Shown here in pieces: positions 25,493 to 62,675 of a stretch of 64,000 nt of DNA. This DNA comes from Mobula hypostoma. Lineage: Eukaryota. The position numbers and the translations under genes are program-made. Numbering within the stretch: the first letter of the stretch is position 1; every line of letters begins with the position of its first letter. The stretch spans positions 39,930,001-39,994,000 of the forward strand of contig NC_086108.1 of assembly GCF_963921235.1 (NCBI RefSeq), in the 5' to 3' direction. The notes beneath the pieces were generated by a model. It was given only the letters and a program-made list of their open reading frames with translations. It had not been told where the DNA came from and made no database searches.

Positions 25493-27099
25493 TTGGATTG
25501 GAATCACAGACACTGTGGGCTGAAGGGCCTGTCCTGTGCGATACTATTCTCCGTAATTATGTGTTAAGTCCCTGTTCTTGTCTTCACAACCTAAATCAAG
25601 AATCAATTAAAAATTTCCAAAACCTGTCACACAAACACAGGTGCATTTGTTTTGTATTCTTTGTAGCGATTAAGTTTCAGACAGAGCAGGTATTGCAAAA
25701 GTACATAAAAAATATCATCGACAGTAATAGCAACAGGGTCTCTTACTCCAAATGTTATTGACTCTTACTTTTCAATCTCTGATTTTGGTTCAGTGCAATG
25801 TTTTGAGCTGCCTGAAATAAAGTTTGGGTTCCCAATACTGCACGTCCAGAAAAGAGCATTTCCACACAACAGCAATGTTGCCAGCTAGCATTGTTATGAA
25901 AGTATTGAATCACAATTCCTAAGGTGCATGTATAAGTGAAAGCAAAACGAAATGCTTGTGTTGTTTTGTGAATTATACACTCTTAACAGATTTTTTATTT
26001 TGTAAAGATTATCTTTTGAACTGCATAGTAAAATTTTAGATTTTTAAATTCCTTTTCAGTTTTGAATTTAATTCTCTATATTTTTGTTCCTTAATCTGTT
26101 TGCTGAAGGACATTATTAAACGTCCTTTTTCTTCAAAAATAGGAAACAAATATATTGTTTCAATGGCAAACCATTGAATCAGATTGGGCTAGTAATCTTT
26201 TGTATTGAATTTAATTTTACCTTGTTTTGTCCATCAAATCTTCAGAAGTCATTCGTGTATCGAAATAAAATCCAGAAGTATTGCATTCAGGACTGGAAAT
26301 TTCTTAATTTGTTATTCCACAGCAGAATATGCTTCAACGTGCAAAGTTATCACATCTTGAACGGTGCAGGGGAGCAATAAAATGACATTCTTTTGCACTG
26401 TAAATACCAGGTAATTCTATGAAAAAAAGTTAATGAGATAGAAATCTCCTGCCTTAGGCTGTATCTAGAATGTGCCTTGAATCACTTAACAAAAATTTAA
26501 ATGCAATGAAGAGGAAGCATTTTCCAGTTTTCCATCTAACATATCCTTTTGATCTTGATGACATATTTATGTTTGTGTGCATTTACTGTAAATGTTATTT
26601 TGTGTACCAGAGCAATCAGATTATAATAAACATTCATCCAAAAGTGTAAGAATGGTATATGTTGAGCTAGAGAGTTGAACATTCACTTTTGAGCCACAAA
26701 TTTTGAGAGTTTAAAGTCATCTGGGAAGAGTCCAAACCTGTACTTGTGTCCATCACTGATATGAGCAGACCGCATTTTCAAGGAAAGCTGTAATTGTATT
26801 TACCAAAGAGCCATAACACAATATGGTATCATTGGAGGGACCTTATTTAATAGCTTAGAAATGATCATTTAAAGCTATTATTGGAATTTTGTTCAATTAT
26901 AATAAATTCACCTACTTAAAATACTTGGGTGGCAAAGGGAGCTTTCCTTTGACTTTTGTAATTATTTACATTTGTGATTTGATATGCAATTTAAAATCTG
27001 TTTGATTTTGACTAACATAAAAAATGGAAATTGAAATTGTTCAAGTATTAATTATTGATGAATATGGTGAAAGAATGAACATACACTTTGTAACAAAGC

Positions 27100-27782
27100 A
27101 AAGTTCAATGTCGAGTTATTATCAAAGCACATATATGTCACCATATACATCCCTGAGATTTGTTTTCTTGCGGGCATACACAGTAAATCCAAGGAACGCG
27201 ATAGAATCAATGAAGACCACATCCAGCAGGACGGACAAACCACCATTGTGCAAAAGTTAACAAACTGTGCAACCACAAAAGAGATAATAAATAAACAAGC
27301 ATAAATGTCAAGAACAAGAGATGAAGAGTCCTTGAAAGTGAATCCACAGGTTGTGGGTACAGTTGAGTGAAGTTATTCCCTCTTTTTCAAGAGCCTGATG
27401 GTGAGGGATAATAACTGTTCCTGAACTTGGTGGTGTGGATCCTGAGACTCCCGTACCACCTTCCTGATAGCAGCAGTGAGAACAGAGCTTGGCCTGGGTG
27501 GTGGGGAATGATGATTTCCAGTGACAGCACTCCATGTAGATGTGCTCAATGGAGGGGAGGGCTTTGCCCATTATGCTTTTTGTAGCATTTTCCATTCAAG
27601 GCCTTGGTGTTTCCGTACCAGGCTGTAACGCAACTAGTCAATATATTCTCCACCACATGTCTATAGAAGTTTGTCAAAGTTTTAGATTCATGCTGAATCT
27701 TTGCAAACTCCTAATACAGTATAGGCACTGCTGTGCTTTCTTCGTATTTGCCCTTATGTGCCAGACAGATCCTCTGAAATGA
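27100..27782 (-). mobile_element. Rex1/Babar LINE 3' fragment
   Basis: ORF 27308-27595 reads ATKSIMGKALPSIEHIYMECC; homologous to the other Rex1 3' parts in the window. Confidence 0.75.
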
Positions 27783-28173
27783 TTTCAGAATCAGAATCAG
27801 TTTTATTATCACTGGCATGTGACGTGAAATTTGTTATCTAGGCAGTAGCAGTTCAATTCAATACATAATATAGAAGAGAAAAAAATACAGTAAACAAGTA
27901 AGTCAATTACAGTATATATATATTGAATAGTTTTAGAAACGTGCAAAAACATAAATACTGTATATTTTTTAAAATGGGATAGTGTCCAAGGATTCAATGT
28001 CCATTTAGGAATCAGATGGCAGAGGGGTAGAAGCTGTTCCTGAATCAACACAATCATTCCTCAGCACTTAAAAACACAAACATGAGGAATTTTGCAGATG
28101 CTGGAAATTCAAGCAACACACATCAAAGTTGCTGGTGAACACAGCAGGCCAGGCAGCATCTCTATGAAGAGGT

Positions 28174-28214
28174 ACAGTCGACGTTTCAGGCCCAGACCCT
28201 TCATCAGGACTAAC
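28174..28214 (-). ncRNA. Minimal type I hammerhead ribozyme motif with intact core
   Basis: Minus-strand RNA: UUAGUC-CUGAUGA-A-GGGU CUGG GCCU-GAAAC-GUC/GACUG. Stem I is UAGUC:GACUG, stem III is the palindromic ACGU, and predicted cleavage follows GUC. Confidence 0.75.
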
Positions 28215-28824
28215 TGAAGGAAGAGCTAGTAAGAAATTTGAAAGTGGGAGGGGGAGGGAGAGATCCAAAATGATAGGAGAAGACAGGAGGGGGAGGGATG
28301 GAGCCAAGAGCTGGACAGGTGATTGGCAAAAAGGATATGACAGGATATCTGTCTGCCAGAGAAAGCAGGATCTCCCAGTGGCCGCACATTTTAATTCCAC
28401 ATCCCATTCCCATTCTGATTTGTCTATCCATGGCCTCCTCTACTGTAAAGATGAAGCCACACTCAGCTTGGAGGAACACCTTATATTCCATCTGGGTAGT
28501 CTCCAACCAGATGGCATGAACATTGACTTCTCTAACTTCTGCTAATGCCCCACCTCCCCCTCATAGCCCATCTGTTATTTATTTATATACACACATTCTT
28601 TTTCTCTCTCTGTCCCTCTCACTATACCCCTTGCCCATCCTCTGGGTTCCCCCCCTCCCCCTTTTCCTTCTCCCTGGGCCTCCTGTCCCATGATCCTCTC
28701 ATATCCCCTTTGCCAATCACCTGTCCAGCTCTTGGCTCCATCCCTCCCCTTCCTGTCTTCTCCTATCATTTTGGATCTCCCCCTCCCCCTCCCACTTTCA
28801 AATCTCTTACTAGCTCTTCCTTCA

Positions 28825-28866
28825 GTTAGTCTTGACGAAGGGTCTCAGCCCGAAATGTTGACTGTA
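28825..28866 (+). ncRNA. Second hammerhead motif with mutated core
   Basis: UUAGUC-UUGACGA-A-GGGU CUCA GCCC-GAAAU-GUU/GACUG; three C-to-U changes in or next to the core relative to the left copy. Confidence 0.55.
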
Positions 28867-31419
28867 CCTCTCCCTAGAGATGCTGCCTGGCCTGCTGTGT
28901 TCACCAGCAACTTTGATGTGTATTCCTCAGCACTTGATTGGAAAATTGAGCCTACTGGGCCTGAACACTTCCCTCGGCAACTGGATCCTAGACTTCCTGA
29001 CTGGGAGACCTCAGTCAGTCCGGATCGGAAGAAGCATCTCCAACACCATCACACTGAGCACGGGGCCCCCTCAGGGCTGTGTGCACAGTCCACTGCTGTT
29101 CACTCTGCTGACCCACGACTGTGCTGCAATACACAGCTCGAATCACATCATCAAGTTCGCAGATGACACGACCATGGTCATCAAGAACGACGAGTCAGCA
29201 TACAGAGAGGAGGTGCAGCGGCTAACAGACTGGTGCAGAGCCAACAACCTGTCTCTGAATGTGAACAAAACAAAAGAGATAGTTGTTGACTTCAGGAGAG
29301 CACGGAGCGACCACTCTCCGCTGATCATTGACGGCTCCTCTGTAGAGATCGTTAAGAGCACCGAATTTCGTGGTGTTCACCTGGCGGAGAATCTCACCTG
29401 GTTCCTCAACACCAGCTCCATAGCCAAGAAAGCCCAGCAGCGTCTCTACTTTCTGTGATGGCTGAGAAAAGTCCATCTCCCACTCCCCATCCTCACCACA
29501 TTCTACAGAGGTTGTATTGAGAGCATCCTGAGCAGCTGCATCACTGCCTGGTTCGGGAATTGCACCATCTCGGATCGCAAGACCCTGCAGTGGATAGAGA
29601 GAACAGCTGAGAAGATCATCGGGGTCTCTCTTCCCGCCATTACAGACATTTACACCACATGCTGCACCCGTAAAGCCAACAGCATTGTGAAGGACCTCAC
29701 GGACTCCTCATACAAACTCTTCTCCCTCCTGCCATCTGGCAAAAGGTACTGAAGAATTCGGGCTCTCACGAGTAGACTGTGCAACAATTTCCTCCCCCAG
29801 GCCATCAGACTCCTTAATACCCAGAATCTAGACTGACATCTATATCATTTCTTATTATAATGTAATTTGTCCTCTACTGTGCCTATTATCTTGTTTATTA
29901 ATTATTGTACTGCCCTGCACTGTTTTGTGTACTTTATGTCATCCTGTGTAGGTCTATAGTCTAGTGTAGTTTTTGTATTGTCTTACATAGTCTAGTGTAG
30001 TTTTGTGTTGTTTCATGTAGCACCATGGTCCTGGAGGAACGTGGTTTCATTTTTACTGTGTACTGTACCAGCAGTTTATGATTGAAATGACAATAAAAAG
30101 TGACTTGACTTGAGTGTATGCATTCAGGCTTCTGTACCTCCTACCTGATAGTTACAGTGAGAAAAGGGCATGCCCTGGGTGCTGGAGGTTCTTTCTAAGA
30201 CACCGCTCCCAGAAGATGTCCTGGGTACTTTGTAGGCTAGTACCCAAGATGGAGCTGACTAGATTTACAACCCTCTGCCGCTTCTTTCGGTCCTGTGCAG
30301 TAGCCCCCCACCTCACCATACCAGATAGTGATGCAGCCTATCAGAATGCTCTCCATGGTACAACTATAGAAGTTTTTGAGTGTATTTGTTGACATGCCAA
30401 ATCTCTTCAAACTCCTAATGTATAGCCACTGTCTTGCTTTCTTTATAACTATATCAATATGTTGGGACCAGGTTAGAACCTCAGAGATCTTGACAACCAG
30501 GAACTTGAAACTGCTCACTCTCTGAACTTCTGATCCCTCTATGAGGATTGGTATGTGTTCCTTCATCTTCCCCTTCCTGAAGTCCACAATCAGCTCTTTT
30601 GTCTTACTGACGTTGAGTGCCAGGTTGTTGCTGCGACACCACTCCACTAGTTGGCATATCTCACTCCTGTACGCCCTCTTGTCACCACCTGAGATTCTAC
30701 CAACAATGATTGTATCATCAGCAAATTTATAGATGGTATTTGAGCTACGTCTAGCCACACAGTCATGTGTATCCCTGAGGTGTGCCAGTGTTGATTTTCA
30801 GAGAGGTGGATATGTTATCACCAATCCACACAGATTGTGGTCTTCCTGTTAGGAAGTTGAGGATCCAATTGCAGAGGAAGGCACAGAGGACCAGGTTCTG
30901 CAACTTCTCAATCAGGATTGTAGGAACGATGGTATTAGATGCTGAGCTATAGTCGATGAACAGCATCCTGACAAAGGAGTTAGTGTTTTCCAGGTGGTCT
31001 AAAGCTGTGTGGAGAGCCATTGAGATTGTGTCTGCCATTCACCTATCGTGGTGATAGGCAAATTTCAATGGGTGCAGGTCGTTGCTGAGGCAGGAGATCA
31101 GTCTAGTCATGACCAACCTCTCAAAGCATTTCATCACTGTCGATGTGAGTGCTACTGGATGATAGTCATTAAGGCAGCCCACATTATTCCTCTTAGGCAC
31201 TGGTATAATTGTTGCCTTTTTGAAGCAGGTGGGAACTTCAACGTAGCAGTGAGAAGTTGAAAATTTGAGCTCTTACTTCACGGCTGGGCTCACTGATTCA
31301 GTGACCACCCTCACTTCATGCCAGGGCCAGGCTAACCCACAACAGTCACTCTATTTAACTGAATAGAGCTCTAGACCACAATCTCATTCAAGGTTTATAA
31401 GATCATTCTACGTATTGTG

Positions 31420-33194: not shown

Positions 33195-36100
33195 CAGCCT
33201 TTCTCAACATTTTTGCTCTGGAGGAACCCTTGAAATAATTTTCAGGTCTCAGGGAACCCTGTGTAAAAATTATAATGTTTTTAATTATATGTTTTTAATA
33301 ATATAAAAATTATATCTACTGTTATATTTTATATGTTATATGTTATAAGTTATAATTGTCAATGCTCTTTTGAGTAGAGAATAAATTTTTAGCCAACCTT
33401 TCTTGAAAGCAGCAGGTAGTTAATCTGAGCTTACCTTCCTTGAAACTAATCATCCTTTCCCTTTCATAAATTTAAAAAACTCGTAAGGCAAACATAATAA
33501 ATTTCTGTTAAATAACTGGCTCAAGCCAAAATGGGATTTATTTTTTTAAAGGCGGACTCAGTGGATTTAATTTAAATATGGGTTGTAAATTGATTTTAAT
33601 TGATGCTATTCACAACATGAAAATTTATTGACAATGTTAAATAGTAAAATTACTAAAAAAAATAAGCCAAATCAATATGAATGAAAATATAGCCTGAGAC
33701 ACAATTTTCTTACAAGACTTTGAAAAAAAATGTTCTTACTAAGTGACATGATCAGGCTCAAATATAGGCCTAGCATGTGAAATCTGTGCTTGTTTTTTGC
33801 TGCACAAATACTCAGTTCTGGGTCGGACTTGAGATAAGCACACACGGATTTCACATTCAACTGAAATGAGATCATCTCTATCCTTGCTCTTGAAGCTTGT
33901 TAAACACGAAAAAATTCGCTCACACATGTAAGAAGTTGAAAACAGCAGCAAAATATTCATTGTTTTCCTATGAATGACAGGATACTCTTCTTCCACAGAA
34001 ATCCAGAATTTGTCCGAGAGCAGTTCAGTAAATCTCATCTTGAGTTCATAATCGGACTGCATCTCACAAAGTTCTTCCTCTTCCCTCAAAGTCAAGTTCT
34101 CAGGCTGAGCAGAAGATTCAGAGTGAGGATCCCTCACCCAGTCATATACTTAAGTTGAAAGGGAGGAAAAGTACTGTTCAGTTTTGTTCTGCAGTTTTTA
34201 CAGGTGGTTTACAATAAGAATTGAAAGTTTCTGATATCCTTCCTCACTCCCAAGCCCAAGCAGCAGTGGAAATATGTCAAGATTTCCTTTCGCAACATGA
34301 TTTTTCCAAAGATTCAAGTTTCCTTTTAAAAGTCAAACCATTTTCTCCAGGGCTTTGCAGAGACTTGTTCAACTGGTTCATATGATGAAAATATCTGCTA
34401 TGTAGGCTAGTTTCTGCAGCTATTCTTCACCTTCAAAGCACTTAGCAAGATCTGTCCTACTATTTTCTTGAAAATACCCCTGCAATTCACCTTTCAGCTC
34501 GAGCAACCTGTTGAAAACTCTTCCTCTGCTAAGCCACTGGATTTCTGCATGTAGCAGGAGACGGGTGTGCTCTTTGTCCGGGTTTTCACACAGTTTTTTA
34601 AACATTCTTGAGTAAACTGGCCTTTTTTTTTTGTAGCATCATCCGGAACTTTTTACATTTTATCACCAGGAGTTTTTGACGTCAGTACCTCTCTGTGAAG
34701 AAAGCAGCATGTTGTGAGAACGTCAGGATTTTCTGTTTTTCACAAGAGAAACGAAACCTCTCATGCAGCTGTTTGCAACAGAAAAAGTCTTCTTGAACTT
34801 CATCATTTACAAACGCTGCAACGTGACATTTATTGGTGAAAACTGTTGACTCACCAACCTGGATAGAGAAGCTGTTGTTTTTCAGTTTATCACACAAAAC
34901 TTCCTCATGTGACATGCCATCAATGCGTTGACCTATCGTACTCTTTGAAAGGGGCCGCCTCTTTGCCCGAATAAAAACCACGCAAGAGCCCATTCTCGAG
35001 CTATTATGTGCGGTCGACTGTGCTCTTCTCACGCGCACAGAGGACGCGCTGCAGGTTGCAGTCACCGTTTGTCAAGGCTGAAAAGGCTTTCTGGTTTACG
35101 GTAAGTCTGAAGAAAACAAAGATTTCCCATCAGAAGCCCCCTCATGGTGTTTTCAATCTACCTGGGATCACTATTAACGACCACCCTCTCACCACAGTTG
35201 AGCAGTTCACCTACCTGGGCAGCGTCATCTCCAACGACGCCACGGTAGTACTGGAATTGACAATGGACTCGCCAGAGCTATCAGTGCCTTCAGGCACCCT
35301 CAGAAACCTGTGTGGAAGAGCCACCAGATGCATCAATCCATGAAAGTCCACGTGCACAGGGCTGCCATCGTCGCAACTCTGTTATGCGGCTCCAAAGACA
35401 GGGTCTTGTACCGCAAGCAAGTCTGGTTGCTAGAACGCTTCCATCAGCGCTGCTTCTGCCCCATCGTGGTTTATCAGCTGGCAGGATTGCGTCTCCAACA
35501 ACGAGGTCCTGGAGAAGGCTCAACTTCCAATCATTGAGTCCATTTTGCTGCTTAGGCCACATGTCTCGCATGGACAACTCTAGGTTACCGAAAGCATTAC
35601 TCTACAGAGAACTCTCTCAGGGCTATAGAGATCGCGCGAGAGGTACAAAGACCAACTTAAGCAGCAGCTCTCTCAGGCAAATATTGAGGTCAAGGTGTGG
35701 CAGCAGCTGGCTTGTGACAGAGACCGATGATCCATGGGGAAGCCAAGAATTTTGTGGAATCCAGAAGAGCGACTGCTAAATAGAAGAGGAGAAGCAGGAA
35801 GGATCCTACTACACAAGTACCTGCATCCCAGCTGTTCCCGTGTCCCTACAGATCCAGAGTTTGCAGATTCAGACTTGGCCTCTACAGTCAACAATGATCA
35901 TGCTGTCGCTCCTGAAGACTCTTCTTCCCTCCTGATCTTCGCAAGTGAAGAACCACCATCATCATTGAGCATGAAACCTTTTCAATTACTCATACTGCAT
36001 CTTTCCTAGTATTTTACCAACTATAATTGTACATGCTGACATTATTAGGTTCTCACCAACTGTGTGACTTTTTCTTTTCTGGGTAATAAATTCTGCTACT

Positions 36101-47155: not shown

Positions 47156-48538
47156 CAGGATATATACATCCCAAAGAGGAAGAAGTATTCTAAAGGCAAG
47201 ATGACACAACCATGGCTAACAAAGGAAATCAAAGCCAACATAAAAGTCAAAGAGAAGGGCATACAATAGAACAAAAATTAGTGGGAAGTTAGGAAATTGG
47301 GAAGCTTTTTAATACCAACCGAAGGCAACTAAAAAAGTCATTAAAAAGGTAAAGATGGGATATGAAAGTAAGGTAGCCAATAATATTAGGGAGGATGTCA
47401 AAAGTTTCTTCAGGTACATAAAGTGTAAAAGAGAGGAAAGTGTGGATATTGGACCACCGGAAAACAATGATGGAGAGGTGGTAATGGGGCACAAGGAAAT
47501 GACTGAAAAACTGAGTAAGTTTTTTGCCACAGTCTTCACTGTGGAAGACACTAGCAGTATGGTGGACGTTCCAGATGTCAGGGGTCATGAAGACTGTGAA
47601 GTTACCATTACTAGAGAGAAGGTTGTTTTGAAACTGTAAGGTCTGAAGTTAGATAAGTCACCTGGACCAGATAGACTATACCCCAGGATTCTGAAGGAGG
47701 TGGCTGAAGAGATTATGGAGGTTCTTTCAAGAATCACTAGATTTTGGAATGGTTTCAGAAGACTGGAAAATTGCAAGTGACACTCCACTCTTCAAGAAGG
47801 GAGAGAGGCAGAAGAAAGGAAATTATAGGCCAGTTAGTCTGACCTCAGTGGTTGGGAAGATGTTGGAATCGATTGTTAAGGATGTAGTTCTGGGTACTTG
47901 GAGGCATTCATTTCAAGGGGACTAGACTATCAAAGCAAGGATATAATGTTGAGACTTTATAAAGCACTGGTGAGGCCTCACTTGGAGTATTGTGAGAACT
48001 TTTGGGCCCCTTATCTTTGAAAGGATGTGCAGAAACTGGAGAGGGTTCAAAAGATGTTCACGAAAATGATTCCAGGATTAAACAGCTTGTCATATGAAGA
48101 ACGTTTCATTGCTCTGGGTCTGTATTCACTGGAACTTTGTAGAATGAGAGGTAACCTAATTGAAACCTGTTGAATGCTGAAAATCTTTAATAGAGTGGAC
48201 GTGGAGAAGATGTTTCCTATGGTGGGAGTGTCTAACCCCAGAGGACACAGCCTCAAATTAGAGGGGCAACCTTTTAGAATGGAGTTTAAGAGGAATTTAT
48301 TTAGCCAGAGAGTGGTGAGTCTGTGGAATTCATTGCCACAGACAGCTATGGAGGCCAAGTTTTTATGAATATCTAAGGCAGCAGTTGATAGATTCTTGAT
48401 TGGTCAGGGTATGAACGGATATGGGGGGAAGGCAGGAGATTGAGGCTGAGAGAAAAAATGAATCACCTATGATGAAATGGAGGAGCAGACTCAATGGGCC
48501 AAATGGCCTAATTCTGCTTCTTTATCTTATGATCTTAT
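47156..48538 (+). mobile_element. CR1 LINE with the RT core deleted
   Basis: YESKVANNIREDVKSFFRYIK, FATVFTVED, YRPVSLTS and FSQRVVSLWNSLP; TCTTATGATCTTAT tail; deletion junction near 47904. Confidence 0.9.
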
Positions 48539-54021: not shown

Positions 54022-54400
54022 ATGTAAGATCGATGCTTCTGCTGCTGTTTCTGTGTGGGAGGGAGAGGGGGGCATTGCGGTTCTGAAGTTAATATCATTC
54101 AACCTTTGGGGTTTCTTGTTTCGTGACTGTCTCTGTAGAGCAGTGATGGCCAACCTTTTACATTCCATGCGTCGATTTTTTCACCCACGAGTTCAGATAC
54201 GATTTTTTTCATGTACGAGCTCTAAATTAACATATTTTTACAAGAATTGAACGGGGGTACAAGAGTTGTATGGTGCACCTGATCTCGTGAGTGAAAAAAT
54301 TGACGCGTGGAATGTAAAAGGTTGGCCACCCCTGCTGTAGGGTGTAAGAATTTCAGGCTGTGTACTGTAGACATTCTCTGATATTAAACTGAACCATTTG
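54022..54400 (+). mobile_element. Second copy of the SINE-like element, split by a hAT MITE
   Basis: Colinear with 52430-52595 once 54141-54342 is removed. Confidence 0.65.
54141..54334. mobile_element. hAT (Buster/Charlie-type) MITE, 194 bp
   Basis: About 56 bp TIRs (CAGTGATGGCCAACCTTTTACATTCC.. / CAGGGGTGGCCAACCTTTTACATTCC..). 8 bp TSD CTGTAGAG (54133-54140) / CTGTAGGG (54335-54342). Confidence 0.92.
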
Positions 54401-59339: not shown

Positions 59340-60721
59340 TGTTACGTGTTGTCACTCCAGAAACTAATTTAAAGAAAAACACAGGATATGGGATGGTGTT
59401 TATTTATTCCTTTTACTTAGCGAGGTGCTCACATGGCATGAAGACATATGCCATTCATGTATTTCTTACCTATAACCCATAATGAAATATGTAAACAACA
59501 AAGAATGCTTAATCAAACAATATTACTGAAATATTAAATACACTGTACTCCTCTGTGCTTAGGGAAAAACTCATACTCAGTATAGAATGCATCTCAACTT
59601 AAGGATGTAACATATTTCTCTCTAGTCATCTTATATACTGTAGTACAGTTACTATATAATACAACTATGTAGTATATATACAGCCACAGCATAGTAAATT
59701 TTAAATTGTTCCATTCAGGCCTAAAGATTTAATAGCTGTGGAAGATTTCTTACTCTTGTGGGATAATGTCTTTCCTGACGGGGGGTGGGGGGTGGGGGGC
59801 AGTCACTCTGCTTGGTAGGAGAGACTTGTGGTTGTGAAACAATCTCAGGTTCCGGGATCTCCTCCGTGGTGGTTGTAGGAGTTGACCCTGGGACTGCAGG
59901 AAATGGTTCTTATAACTCTGGGCACCTTTCCTCTCCTCAGCTGATCCAAGTGTTATATCCAGATGACATCAGATGCAATTTCTACTATGTAGGAGAGTGG
60001 TCCAGTTCTATCCTTAATCTTTCCAACTATCCACATTTAGTCATCTCCGTAGTGCCTCACCAGGACTGCTTGTCCAGGAGTGAAAGATTGAGACTTCAGT
60101 TTGTCTCAGTTGTTTGTCCTGCATACTGCTTCTGTGATTGGGTTTGAGGAGGTCCAAGTGTGAATGCAGGGGACAAGCAAGGAACAGCATATCTGGCAAA
60201 TTCTTGGTTGTGGTGTGTGCCACATTGCAATATGCAAAGAGAAAATTGGCAAGCTTCTGATTTAATGTCAGTGTAGTGTGTTCTGCTGACATTGATTGCA
60301 GTGTGTTCTTTGGACTCTGGGCAAACCTATCTGCTGGATAGGACAGTGTAGATGTAATATACATTATTCCATCCATTCATTTTCAGGAACAACTGAAAAT
60401 GTTCCATATCAAATGGTGGTCCATTGTCACTGATTACGTCTTCTGGAATACTAGTCCTTGAGAAGAGACTTCTGAACACATTTGCAGTAAGTGAAGCCAT
60501 AGTGGAGGCTATTAGGAATACTGCTACCACTTTGTAGCTGCATCCACTACTACCAAGAAAATCCGCAAGAATTCTATGCCAGGGCAATGCAGGTTATTCC
60601 CAGAGATGGAGAGGTGCTGCTCTTCGCATCTTCTGGATGTGTTTGCATCCTGAGCAGTGCATGGCAAACTGCTCAATATGCTGATTTATCCCCAGCCACC
60701 AGACAAAGCTTTGAGCCAATG
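59340..60721 (-). mobile_element. Gypsy LTR retrotransposon remnant: integrase region, PPT and 3' LTR (59340-59547)
   Basis: PWHRILADF, PEDVISDNGPPF and FLFAYCNVAHTTT integrase motifs. On the minus strand a purine tract AGAGGAG precedes an LTR containing AATAAA and ending ACGTAACA. Confidence 0.85.
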
Positions 60722-62675
60722 TTAAGGATTGCATAAAAGCCAAGGAGAGGGCATATAAGGTAGCAAAAGTAAGTGGGAAGTTAGCTGATTTGGGAAGCTT
60801 TTAAAATCCATCAAAAGGCAACTAAAAAAGCTATAAGGATGGAAAGGATGAAATATGAGGGCATACTAGCTAACAATATAAAGCAGGCTACCAGAAGTTT
60901 TATCCGTTAAATAAAGAATGACAGGGAGGTGAGAGTTGATATTGGACCACCAGAAAATGATGCTCTGAGGTAGTAATGTGAGGACAAAGAAATGGCAGAT
61001 GAACTTAATGGATATTTTGCATCTGTCTTCACTGTGGAAGACGCTACCAGTGTGCCAGAGGTCCGTGAGTGTCAGGGAGCAGGAGTGAGTGCCACTGCTA
61101 TTCCAAAGGAAAAAGTGCTAGGCAAACTCAAAGTTGTCAAAGTTGATAAGTCACCTGGACCAGATAGACTACCTCCCAGAATTCTGAGAGAGGTTGCTGA
61201 AGAGATAACGAATGCATTGGTCATGATCTTTCAAGAATAACTTGATTGTAGCATGGTCCCAGAGGACTGAGAGATGGTATGCGTCACTCCACTCCTTAAG
61301 AAGAGAAGAAGGCAAAACCGTGGGCCAGTTAGCCTAACCTCAATGGTTGGGAAAGTGTTGGAGTTCATTATTAAGGATGAGGTTTCGGGGTATTTGGAGT
61401 CTAATGATAAAATAAGTCAAAATCAGCATGGTAAAGAGAAATTTTGCCTGACAAAGGTGTTAGAGTCCTTTGAGGAAGTAACAAGTGGGGTGGACAAAGA
61501 GAAGGCAGTAGATATCATTTACTTGGATTTTCAGAAGGCATTTGATAAAGTGCCATGCAAGAGGCTGCTTAACAAGATAAAATCCTATGGCGTTACAGGA
61601 AAGATACTGGCATAGATAGCGGAATGGCTGACAAGCAGGAGGCACGAGTGGAAATAAAAGGGGTCTTTTCTGGTTGGTTACCAGTGACTAGTGGTGTTCC
61701 TCCGGGGTCAGTATTAGGACCACTACTTTTCACATTATTTGTCAATGATTTGGATAATGGAATTGATGGCTTTGTGGCAAAGTTTGTGGATGATACAAAG
61801 ATAGATAGAGGGGTAGGTAGCGCTGAGGAAGCAATGCGATTGCAGCAGGACTTAGACAAATTGGAAGAATGGGCAAAAGAGTAGCAGCTGGAATACAGTG
61901 TTGAGAAATGTATGAAAATGCATTTTGGTAAAAGGAACAATAGTGTGAACTAGTGTGGAGAAGGTGAAAACCTCAGAAGGACTTAGGAGTCCTTGTGCTA
62001 GACTCCAAGGTGGTTAATTTACAGGCAGCGTTTGTGGTAAAGAAGGCAAATGCAATGTTGGCATTTATTTCAAGGGGAACAGAATATAAAAGCAAAGAGA
62101 TAATGCTGAGGCTTCATAAGACACTAGTCATACTGCACTCAGCATATTAACAGTTTTGGGCCCCATATCTCAGAAAGGATGTATTGTCATTTGAGAAAGT
62201 CTAGAGTAGGTTCACAAGGATGATTCTGGGAATAAAAGGGTTAGCATACCCGGAGGGTTTCGTAGCTTTGGGCCTGTACTCACTGTAATCTAGAAGAATG
62301 TAAGGGGATCTTATTGAAACCTACCGAATGGTGGATGTGGAGAGGATGTTTCCTATGATGGGGGCGTCCAGAACTAAAGGGCACAGCCTCATAAATGAGG
62401 GCAACTCTTTAGAACAGAGGTAAGGAGGAATTTTTTTTAGCCAGAGAGTAGTGAATCTGTGGAATGCTCTGCCACAGACTGCGGCGGAGGCCAAGTCCGT
62501 GGGCATATTTAAGGTGAAAGTTGATTGTTTCCTGATCGGTCAGGGGATCAAAGGATACGGCGAGAAGGCAGGTGTATCGGTTTGAGTATCCGGGATCAGC
62601 CATAATGGAATGATGGAGCAGACTCGATGGGCTGAATGGCCTAATTCTGCTCCTAATATTCTTATGGTCTTATGG
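60722..62675 (+). mobile_element. CR1 LINE, 5'-truncated, about 1.95 kb
   Basis: YFASVFTVED, KSPGPD, YLDFQKAFDKVP, TSGVPPGSVLGPLLF and KFVDDTK; (TCTTATGG)2 tail. Confidence 0.93.

Follow-up and report, generated by a model that had tools for sequence, protein, structure and literature searches.

Does a genomic fold-back with a hammerhead ribozyme motif in each arm, one complete and one altered, represent a functional arrangement, or is it an ordinary product of retroelement insertion? The question is raised by positions 28070–28921 of a 64,000-nt stretch of DNA from the ray Mobula hypostoma (the whole stretch is referred to as the window), for which an initial annotation had proposed two inverted minimal hammerheads in the fold-back of a Penelope-like element (PLE).

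Anatomy of the insertion

The fold-back forms part of a PLE insertion of 852 bp (28070–28921) that comprises two 5'-truncated 3' ends, one inverted and one forward, of a PLE that is probably of Neptune type. The insertion is flanked by a 14-bp target site duplication (TSD; 28056–28069 and 28922–28935, plus strand), the sole exact direct repeat of at least 8 bp between the flanks, whose word occurs twice in the window. Between the left TSD copy and the left arm lies a 3' tail of 48 nt (28070–28117, minus strand), which is present at the left end only and is covered by contigs of the family, many of them ending near 28077. The left arm (28118–28346, minus strand) is an inverted, 5'-truncated copy of the 3' end of the element, 229 bp long and with 15 differences from the right arm; loose ends of family contigs behind 28346 run on as element sequence. 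At the inner junction 28346/28347, which is flush, the forward copy starts with the 5'-truncated C-terminal end of the PLE open reading frame (28347–28545, plus strand), i.e. 65 amino acids of the end of the GIY-YIG endonuclease, and the stop codon. The 3' untranslated region of the forward copy (28546–28692, plus strand) extends from the stop codon to the start of the inverted repeat and has no duplicate in the left arm; it is followed by the right arm (28693–28921, plus strand), the tailless 3' end of the forward copy and 229-bp inverted-repeat partner of the left arm. The arm length of 235 bp returned by the repeat finder is an overshoot, since its outer 6 bp run into the TSD. The right hammerhead motif starts about 280 bp past the endonuclease stop codon, in the terminal repeat or 3' end position of a PLE.

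The target was a decayed LINE, of which a reverse transcriptase (RT) fragment follows the right TSD copy (28936–29749, plus strand; Pfam RVT_1, E=4.8e-14, also ALKBH8_N) in a frame that begins near 28041, left of the insertion. Excision of the insertion together with one TSD copy restores a frame that stays free of stops from about 28041, through the empty site and into the LINE RT fragment. Because one TSD brackets the whole fold-back and the host frame is restored on excision, we consider the 852 bp the result of a single insertion event. Neither blastn nor tblastn found a further copy of the element in the window. Another LINE RT fragment (30240–31038, minus strand) faces the host LINE, and a weak match to a hAT dimerisation domain occurs at 33742–34149 (minus strand). 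The stretches 47239–48538 and 60732–62673 are two decayed copies that are about 71% alike; with RT and integrase domains near 60330–61881, they are likely remains of an old LTR retrotransposon. An imperfect palindrome of 204 bp (54136–54339), about 72% self-complementary, is possibly a MITE.

Identity of the element

The 65-aa remnant shows 81–92% identity to all four matched proteins, all of which are from rays (Mobula hypostoma and Hypanus sabinus). The locus retains just these last 65 residues, and the RT, linker and GIY-YIG features were read in the homologues: the RT motif YID and a CX2-5CxxC linker preceding the endonuclease are present in four of four, while three of four give a GIY-YIG Pfam score, each below the cut-off. 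The closeness of the remnant to such proteins bears out the proposed Penelope-like identity, and with the closest named proteins coming from Mobula and Hypanus, the suggested cartilaginous-fish origin is supported as well. The CX2-5CxxC linker is described in PMC8557442 (Craig et al. 2021) as a mark of the Neptune and Nematis clades; the assignment to Neptune is inferred from this linker and the vertebrate host. PLEs of this type have an RT and, C-terminal to it, a GIY-YIG endonuclease with two cysteines between GIY and YIG, with which the homologues agree.

The hammerhead motifs of the two arms

The left motif (28212–28175, minus strand) has the layout that had been described for it, namely stem I (UAGUC/GACUG, with one U-G wobble and four Watson-Crick pairs), CUGAUGA, an extra A (28200), stem II (GGGU/GCCU) closed by a 4-nt loop, GAAA, and a loopless ACGU; it agrees with the consensus of minimal hammerheads except for U at 11.1. 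The cut foreseen between 28180 and 28179 on the minus strand is correctly placed, with C17 at 28180, self-cleavage itself being a prediction. The right motif (28827–28864, plus strand) likewise contains UUGACGA and GAAAUGUU as annotated; it carries the changes C3U, C15.2U and C17U and keeps G10.1-C11.1. One unpaired base separates A9 from 10.1 in both arms (A28200 and its counterpart), and positions 15.2–16.2 lack a loop III; they are palindromic in the left motif (ACGU), while AUGU of the right motif is not a strict palindrome. This layout supports the assignment to the minimal type I hammerheads.

A search of both strands of the window with a descriptor of our own for this class returned one match, the left motif, as against none in 200 first-order Markov simulations, so that the left motif is not a chance occurrence. 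Five other strings in the window resembling CUGANGA...GAAA fail the descriptor. Rfam hammerhead models need a stem III; among the five weak matches that an Rfam search of 26000–31000 gave at E≤10, none was a hammerhead.

The contrast between an intact and a decayed motif, as drawn in the initial annotation, holds for the core letters, as CUGANGA, GAAA and U16.1–H17 are complete in the left motif and the right motif has U3. It does not hold for stem II, which is the weaker one in the left copy: left stem II contains two G-U wobbles, including G10.1-U11.1, with a predicted energy of –2.0 kcal/mol, compared to –3.7 kcal/mol for right stem II with G10.1-C11.1. The right motif may not be wholly dead, judging from published motifs: U17 fits the published H17, and U3 occurs together with G8 in one of 56 motifs. 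A U15.2-G16.2 combination was not seen among the 56 motifs of Fig. S3 of PMC4209133.

Unconstrained folding of the motifs was no better than that of shuffled sequences (z = 0.59, –0.12, –0.46 and –0.74), as expected for a motif without stem III, which counts neither for nor against it, and the computed hammerhead fold of a dimer reached –11.5 kcal/mol versus a cofold minimum of –32.0 kcal/mol. In the predicted minimum-energy fold of the monomer, G5–G8 pair with C15.2–C17 (28205–28202 with 28183–28180, minus strand), which extends stem I and hides the core. This helix is perfect if N7 is C, the commoner state in the family, and could represent a built-in off fold.

Abundance and variation of the family

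At least half of the sampled words were contained in eight of the 24 sequencing runs listed, which derive from two organisms. The 371-bp stretch 28050–28420 matched 112,102 and 100,987 contigs in one DNA run per organism, and 8,937 contigs in a run guessed to be RNA (X17); these matches speak for the family and not for the insertion, as no piece bridges the flank in either organism. In an unrelated run of raw reads (X21), 0 reads matched the stretch, which is no test of the presence of the family. Among the 15 of 117 joints listed, nine lead from an inverted arm of different length into forward endonuclease sequence, the sides of the joints being short (21–34 letters); this is as expected if other loci share the fold-back architecture. 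The largest piles of loose contig ends among those listed are located at the motif edges, at 28174 (1,418 and 1,168 contigs) and 28211 (1,046 and 825), suggesting sister subfamilies which have the motif in common and diverge beside it.

In the two DNA runs, the share of depth that departs from the base named, a depth-weighted value that does not equal a copy count, was 7.0 and 7.5% at C17, 8.2 and 9.1% at G16.2, 7.7 and 7.9% at C15.2, 5.6 and 7.2% at G12, and 12 and 13% at the loop G. N7 is C in 60 and 52% of depth (not C in 40–48%), and 11.1 is C in 30 and 37% (not C in 63–70%). The CpG cytosines 28266 and 28305 in the flank vary as little as the core (5–6%), in a comparison based on the 40 of 108 variants listed and to which G8, G1.1 and the non-CpG core sites do not belong. 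If such variation were due to decay after insertion, the two positions of a CpG should be affected equally, yet 11.1 and G12 are strongly asymmetric, which suggests that the mobile master copies tolerate U11.1 but not A12. As far as the variants listed go, they suggest that the master copies of the family keep the hammerhead core. Core variants made up 2.3–3.6% in the run guessed to be RNA versus 5.6–9.1% in the DNA runs, as if younger copies were over-represented.

Divergence between the arms

Of the 15 differences between the arms, seven sit inside the 42-nt motif, so that divergence is faster there than in the arm as a whole (binomial p=0.011). Six of these seven are at CpG, however, and non-CpG differences are not distributed unevenly (1/32 in the motif, 8/187 in the rest of the arm; Fisher p=1.0). 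Since the motif differences are mostly CpG changes and the non-CpG divergence equals that of the rest of the arm, there is no clear selection on the present copy. All five CpG sites of the arms are situated in the motif (five in 42 nt versus none in 187; p=0.00016), and this clustering is consistent with a family that keeps mutable sequence there.

Each arm has undergone three changes at CpG sites. Those of the left arm affect three of four tolerant positions and none of six constrained ones, but the p value of 0.033 is post hoc, the arm having been picked as the intact one, and for both arms together p=0.14; two of the three are common states in the family. If CpG rates are taken as 8–30% per site, 24–50% of insertions are expected to retain exactly one intact arm. 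A special status of the intact/decayed contrast is thus not supported, as it is mostly a matter of CpG changes in a setting in which one intact arm of two is expected that often, and the arrangement that had been singled out is published as a common product of PLE insertion. Ordinary mutation after insertion is the likely source of the contrast, which makes the locus an ordinary one.

Predicted fold-back of read-through transcripts

The proposal that fold-back could mask the motifs is borne out as a prediction: in a transcript of either strand, 38 of the 42 motif bases are predicted to be paired to bases of the other arm, at a mean probability of 0.90, in a fold-back of about –500 kcal/mol, and the duplex of the motif with its antisense has about –54 kcal/mol compared to about –12 kcal/mol for a hammerhead folded from two molecules. 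With both copies facing outward, read-through RNA would always make the antisense arm first. Sound as it is as a prediction, masking follows from any insertion of this kind and looks incidental.

No host gene or transcript covering the locus was found when 214 of the 223 stop-free frames of at least 62 aa (209, and five from a separate domain scan) were searched for domains, a size limit below which exons are missed; some of the remaining nine frames are inside the element. The domains found were those of transposons, besides one sub-threshold match to DHQS_C. The strand skew of the window (T over A, 0.03; G over C, 0.05) is too small to indicate which strand is transcribed.

Origin of the inverted arrangement

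Taken together, the data make us rather confident that the locus is a single 852-bp fold-back of two truncated PLE 3' ends, likely dead and likely of two-primer origin, whose motifs would cleave as a dimer or with protein and have likely drifted neutrally, mainly at CpG. Both ends of one staggered cut would each prime a cDNA, giving two truncated 3' ends that face outward: at the TSD, the 3' end of the top strand would prime the cDNA that carries the tail, and that of the bottom strand the cDNA that lacks it. Use of two adjacent start sites would place the tail on one end only. By analogy with related elements, the motifs would self-cleave as a dimer or with the help of protein only; the two copies would then drift neutrally, chiefly at their CpG sites, while selection on the core would act in mobile master copies and not at the present locus. 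Masking of either motif in read-through RNA would be a by-product of the architecture. The two-primer origin is proposed here from one locus.

In the empty target site, the two inferred nicks, 14 bp apart, both read T/GATTG on their own strand (28051–28056 and 28935–28940; the slash denotes the nick). A symmetry of six bases at a 14-bp stagger occurs at 28 of 63,940 positions of the window, or at 92 if four placements are allowed, and the site is one case noticed post hoc. It fits two-primer insertion by a dimeric enzyme and is a possible footprint of a dimeric endonuclease. A more far-reaching model, in which the main role of the hammerhead palindrome is to hold two element RNAs as a pair, while a dimeric RT-endonuclease cuts the symmetric T/GATTG site and primes one cDNA per nick on these paired RNAs, leading to fold-backs, appears very improbable to us. 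Naiad PLEs, which have no hammerhead, still form inversions (PMC8557442), and this counts against a need for the hammerhead in inversion.

Among the rival explanations, we would give some weight, although a minor one, to the possibility that the arms were copied from two RNAs of sister subfamilies and that part of their difference (U7 and U11.1 of the left arm) is inherited. N7 and 11.1 are indeed strongly polymorphic in the family, and a two-primer event permits two templates; on the other hand, both arms have the minority base at 28141 in common (79–82% of depth shows the other base in the two DNA runs), and changes private to the left arm at 28165, 28235 and 28259 (91–98% of depth differs) indicate ample change after insertion. 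Two templates would alter the detail of a two-primer insertion, not the verdict. That the insertion instead consists of back-to-back independent insertions of one family, or is a DNA transposon resembling a MITE, with long inverted repeats at its termini, is extremely improbable. Inverted repeats flanked by a TSD do resemble a DNA element, and the family is abundant enough for neighbouring insertions, but one TSD surrounds both arms, the inner junction is flush, the ends are unequal due to the one-sided tail, the spacer is retroelement endonuclease sequence, and the joints in other contigs involve inverted arms of many lengths.

We also judge it very improbable that, as a strong form of the initial annotation would have it, the fold-back is a regulatory device in which the antisense arm silences an active left ribozyme in read-through RNA, with the left core under selection at the locus. 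The predicted long-range pairing of the motif, the energy of its duplex with the antisense, and the avoidance of constrained sites by the left-arm CpG changes, post hoc as that p value is, would agree with such a device. There would be little to suppress, however, as a lone minimal hammerhead has no detectable monomer activity (PMC4209133), and a host-gene domain was present in none of the 214 scanned frames. The architecture is, moreover, common in the family and in print, and the non-CpG divergence of the motif equals that of the arm. We thus retain a single insertion, probably primed from both ends of one cut, as the origin of the locus.

Comparison with known elements

What the locus supplies is one clean, fully bounded PLE fold-back insertion. 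Craig et al. (PMC8557442) treat as open both what PLE hammerheads do and how inverted insertions arise. A single locus answers neither question, but the abundance of the ray family would make both testable, and the reading of a symmetric cut with two primers, if true across copies, would account for a peculiarity of PLE insertions that has been noted for long. Our literature search returned no report on the present ray family, although motifs from sharks or rays may already be among those treated by Lünse, Weinberg and Breaker (RNA Biol).

The locus extends the published class of minimal hammerheads to an abundant ray PLE family, every trait highlighted here being already contained in PMC4209133 (Cervera and de la Peña 2014). 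There, the extra base after A9 is given as a conserved trait, the palindromic 15.2–16.2 is listed too, and fishes are reported to have minimal hammerheads in Neptune, Poseidon and Xena elements. For Schistosoma mansoni, dual motifs 100–700 bp apart on opposite strands are described, and the main text and Fig. S4A present a 5'-truncated PLE whose opposite strand carries a second motif. Cleavage of monomers was undetected and dimers cleaved weakly in that study; dimer cleavage of PLE hammerheads is also summarised in PMC6765202. Like the metazoan PLE motifs, those of the ray are of type I, with CUGANGA and an unpaired base before stem II, a short stem I, no stem III beyond the palindrome, and a location at the PLE 3' end. 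The Acropora Neptune entry in Fig. S3 of PMC4209133 is built alike, including a stem II of 4 bp, whereas most vertebrate stems II in that figure are longer than here, and none of its 56 motifs is from a cartilaginous fish. The consensus at 11.1 is C, where the left arm and most of the family depth have U; by our reading, a G-U pair is present in eight of the 56 motifs.

As to the insertion, an adjacent inverted copy and a one-sided tail are frequent in PLE insertions according to PMC8557442, where the legend to Fig. 2 shows the architecture. With the Neptune/Nematis-type units described there, the locus shares the 5'-truncated copy next to an inverted 5'-truncated copy, the tail at one end, a TSD of variable length and, in the homologues, CX2-5CxxC before GIY-YIG; unlike them, it has no tandem pLTR and is not inserted in a (TA)n microsatellite, and its tail, at 48 nt, slightly exceeds the described 30–40 bp.

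Hammerhead-bearing, PLE-derived non-LTR retrozymes with a mean family length of 363 bp have been reported for the one chondrichthyan sampled (bioRxiv 10.64898/2026.07.22.740005). Animal non-LTR retrozymes are head-to-tail non-coding repeats, whereas the locus consists of two copies in inverted orientation and includes coding sequence for an endonuclease; with one such pair, its coding remnant and no further copy in the window, an identity as a non-LTR retrozyme was rejected.

Another related system is the Poseidon element PAc of Anolis carolinensis (Frangieh et al. 2024, PMC11167929). Its protein, a predicted dimer with a preference for ATT, nicks both strands and extends them, and it starts reverse transcription at two adjacent sites that define the tail. 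Its hammerhead cleaves only with the protein of the element and is dispensable for insertion in vitro. Both are PLEs with a hammerhead near two RT start sites which define (in the ray, presumably) the tail, and the preference for ATT is paralleled by the GATT that follows the inferred nicks here. In PAc, the start of the open reading frame overlaps the ribozyme. PAc differs in that it belongs to another clade and has been tested biochemically, whereas the ray family is known from its sequence.
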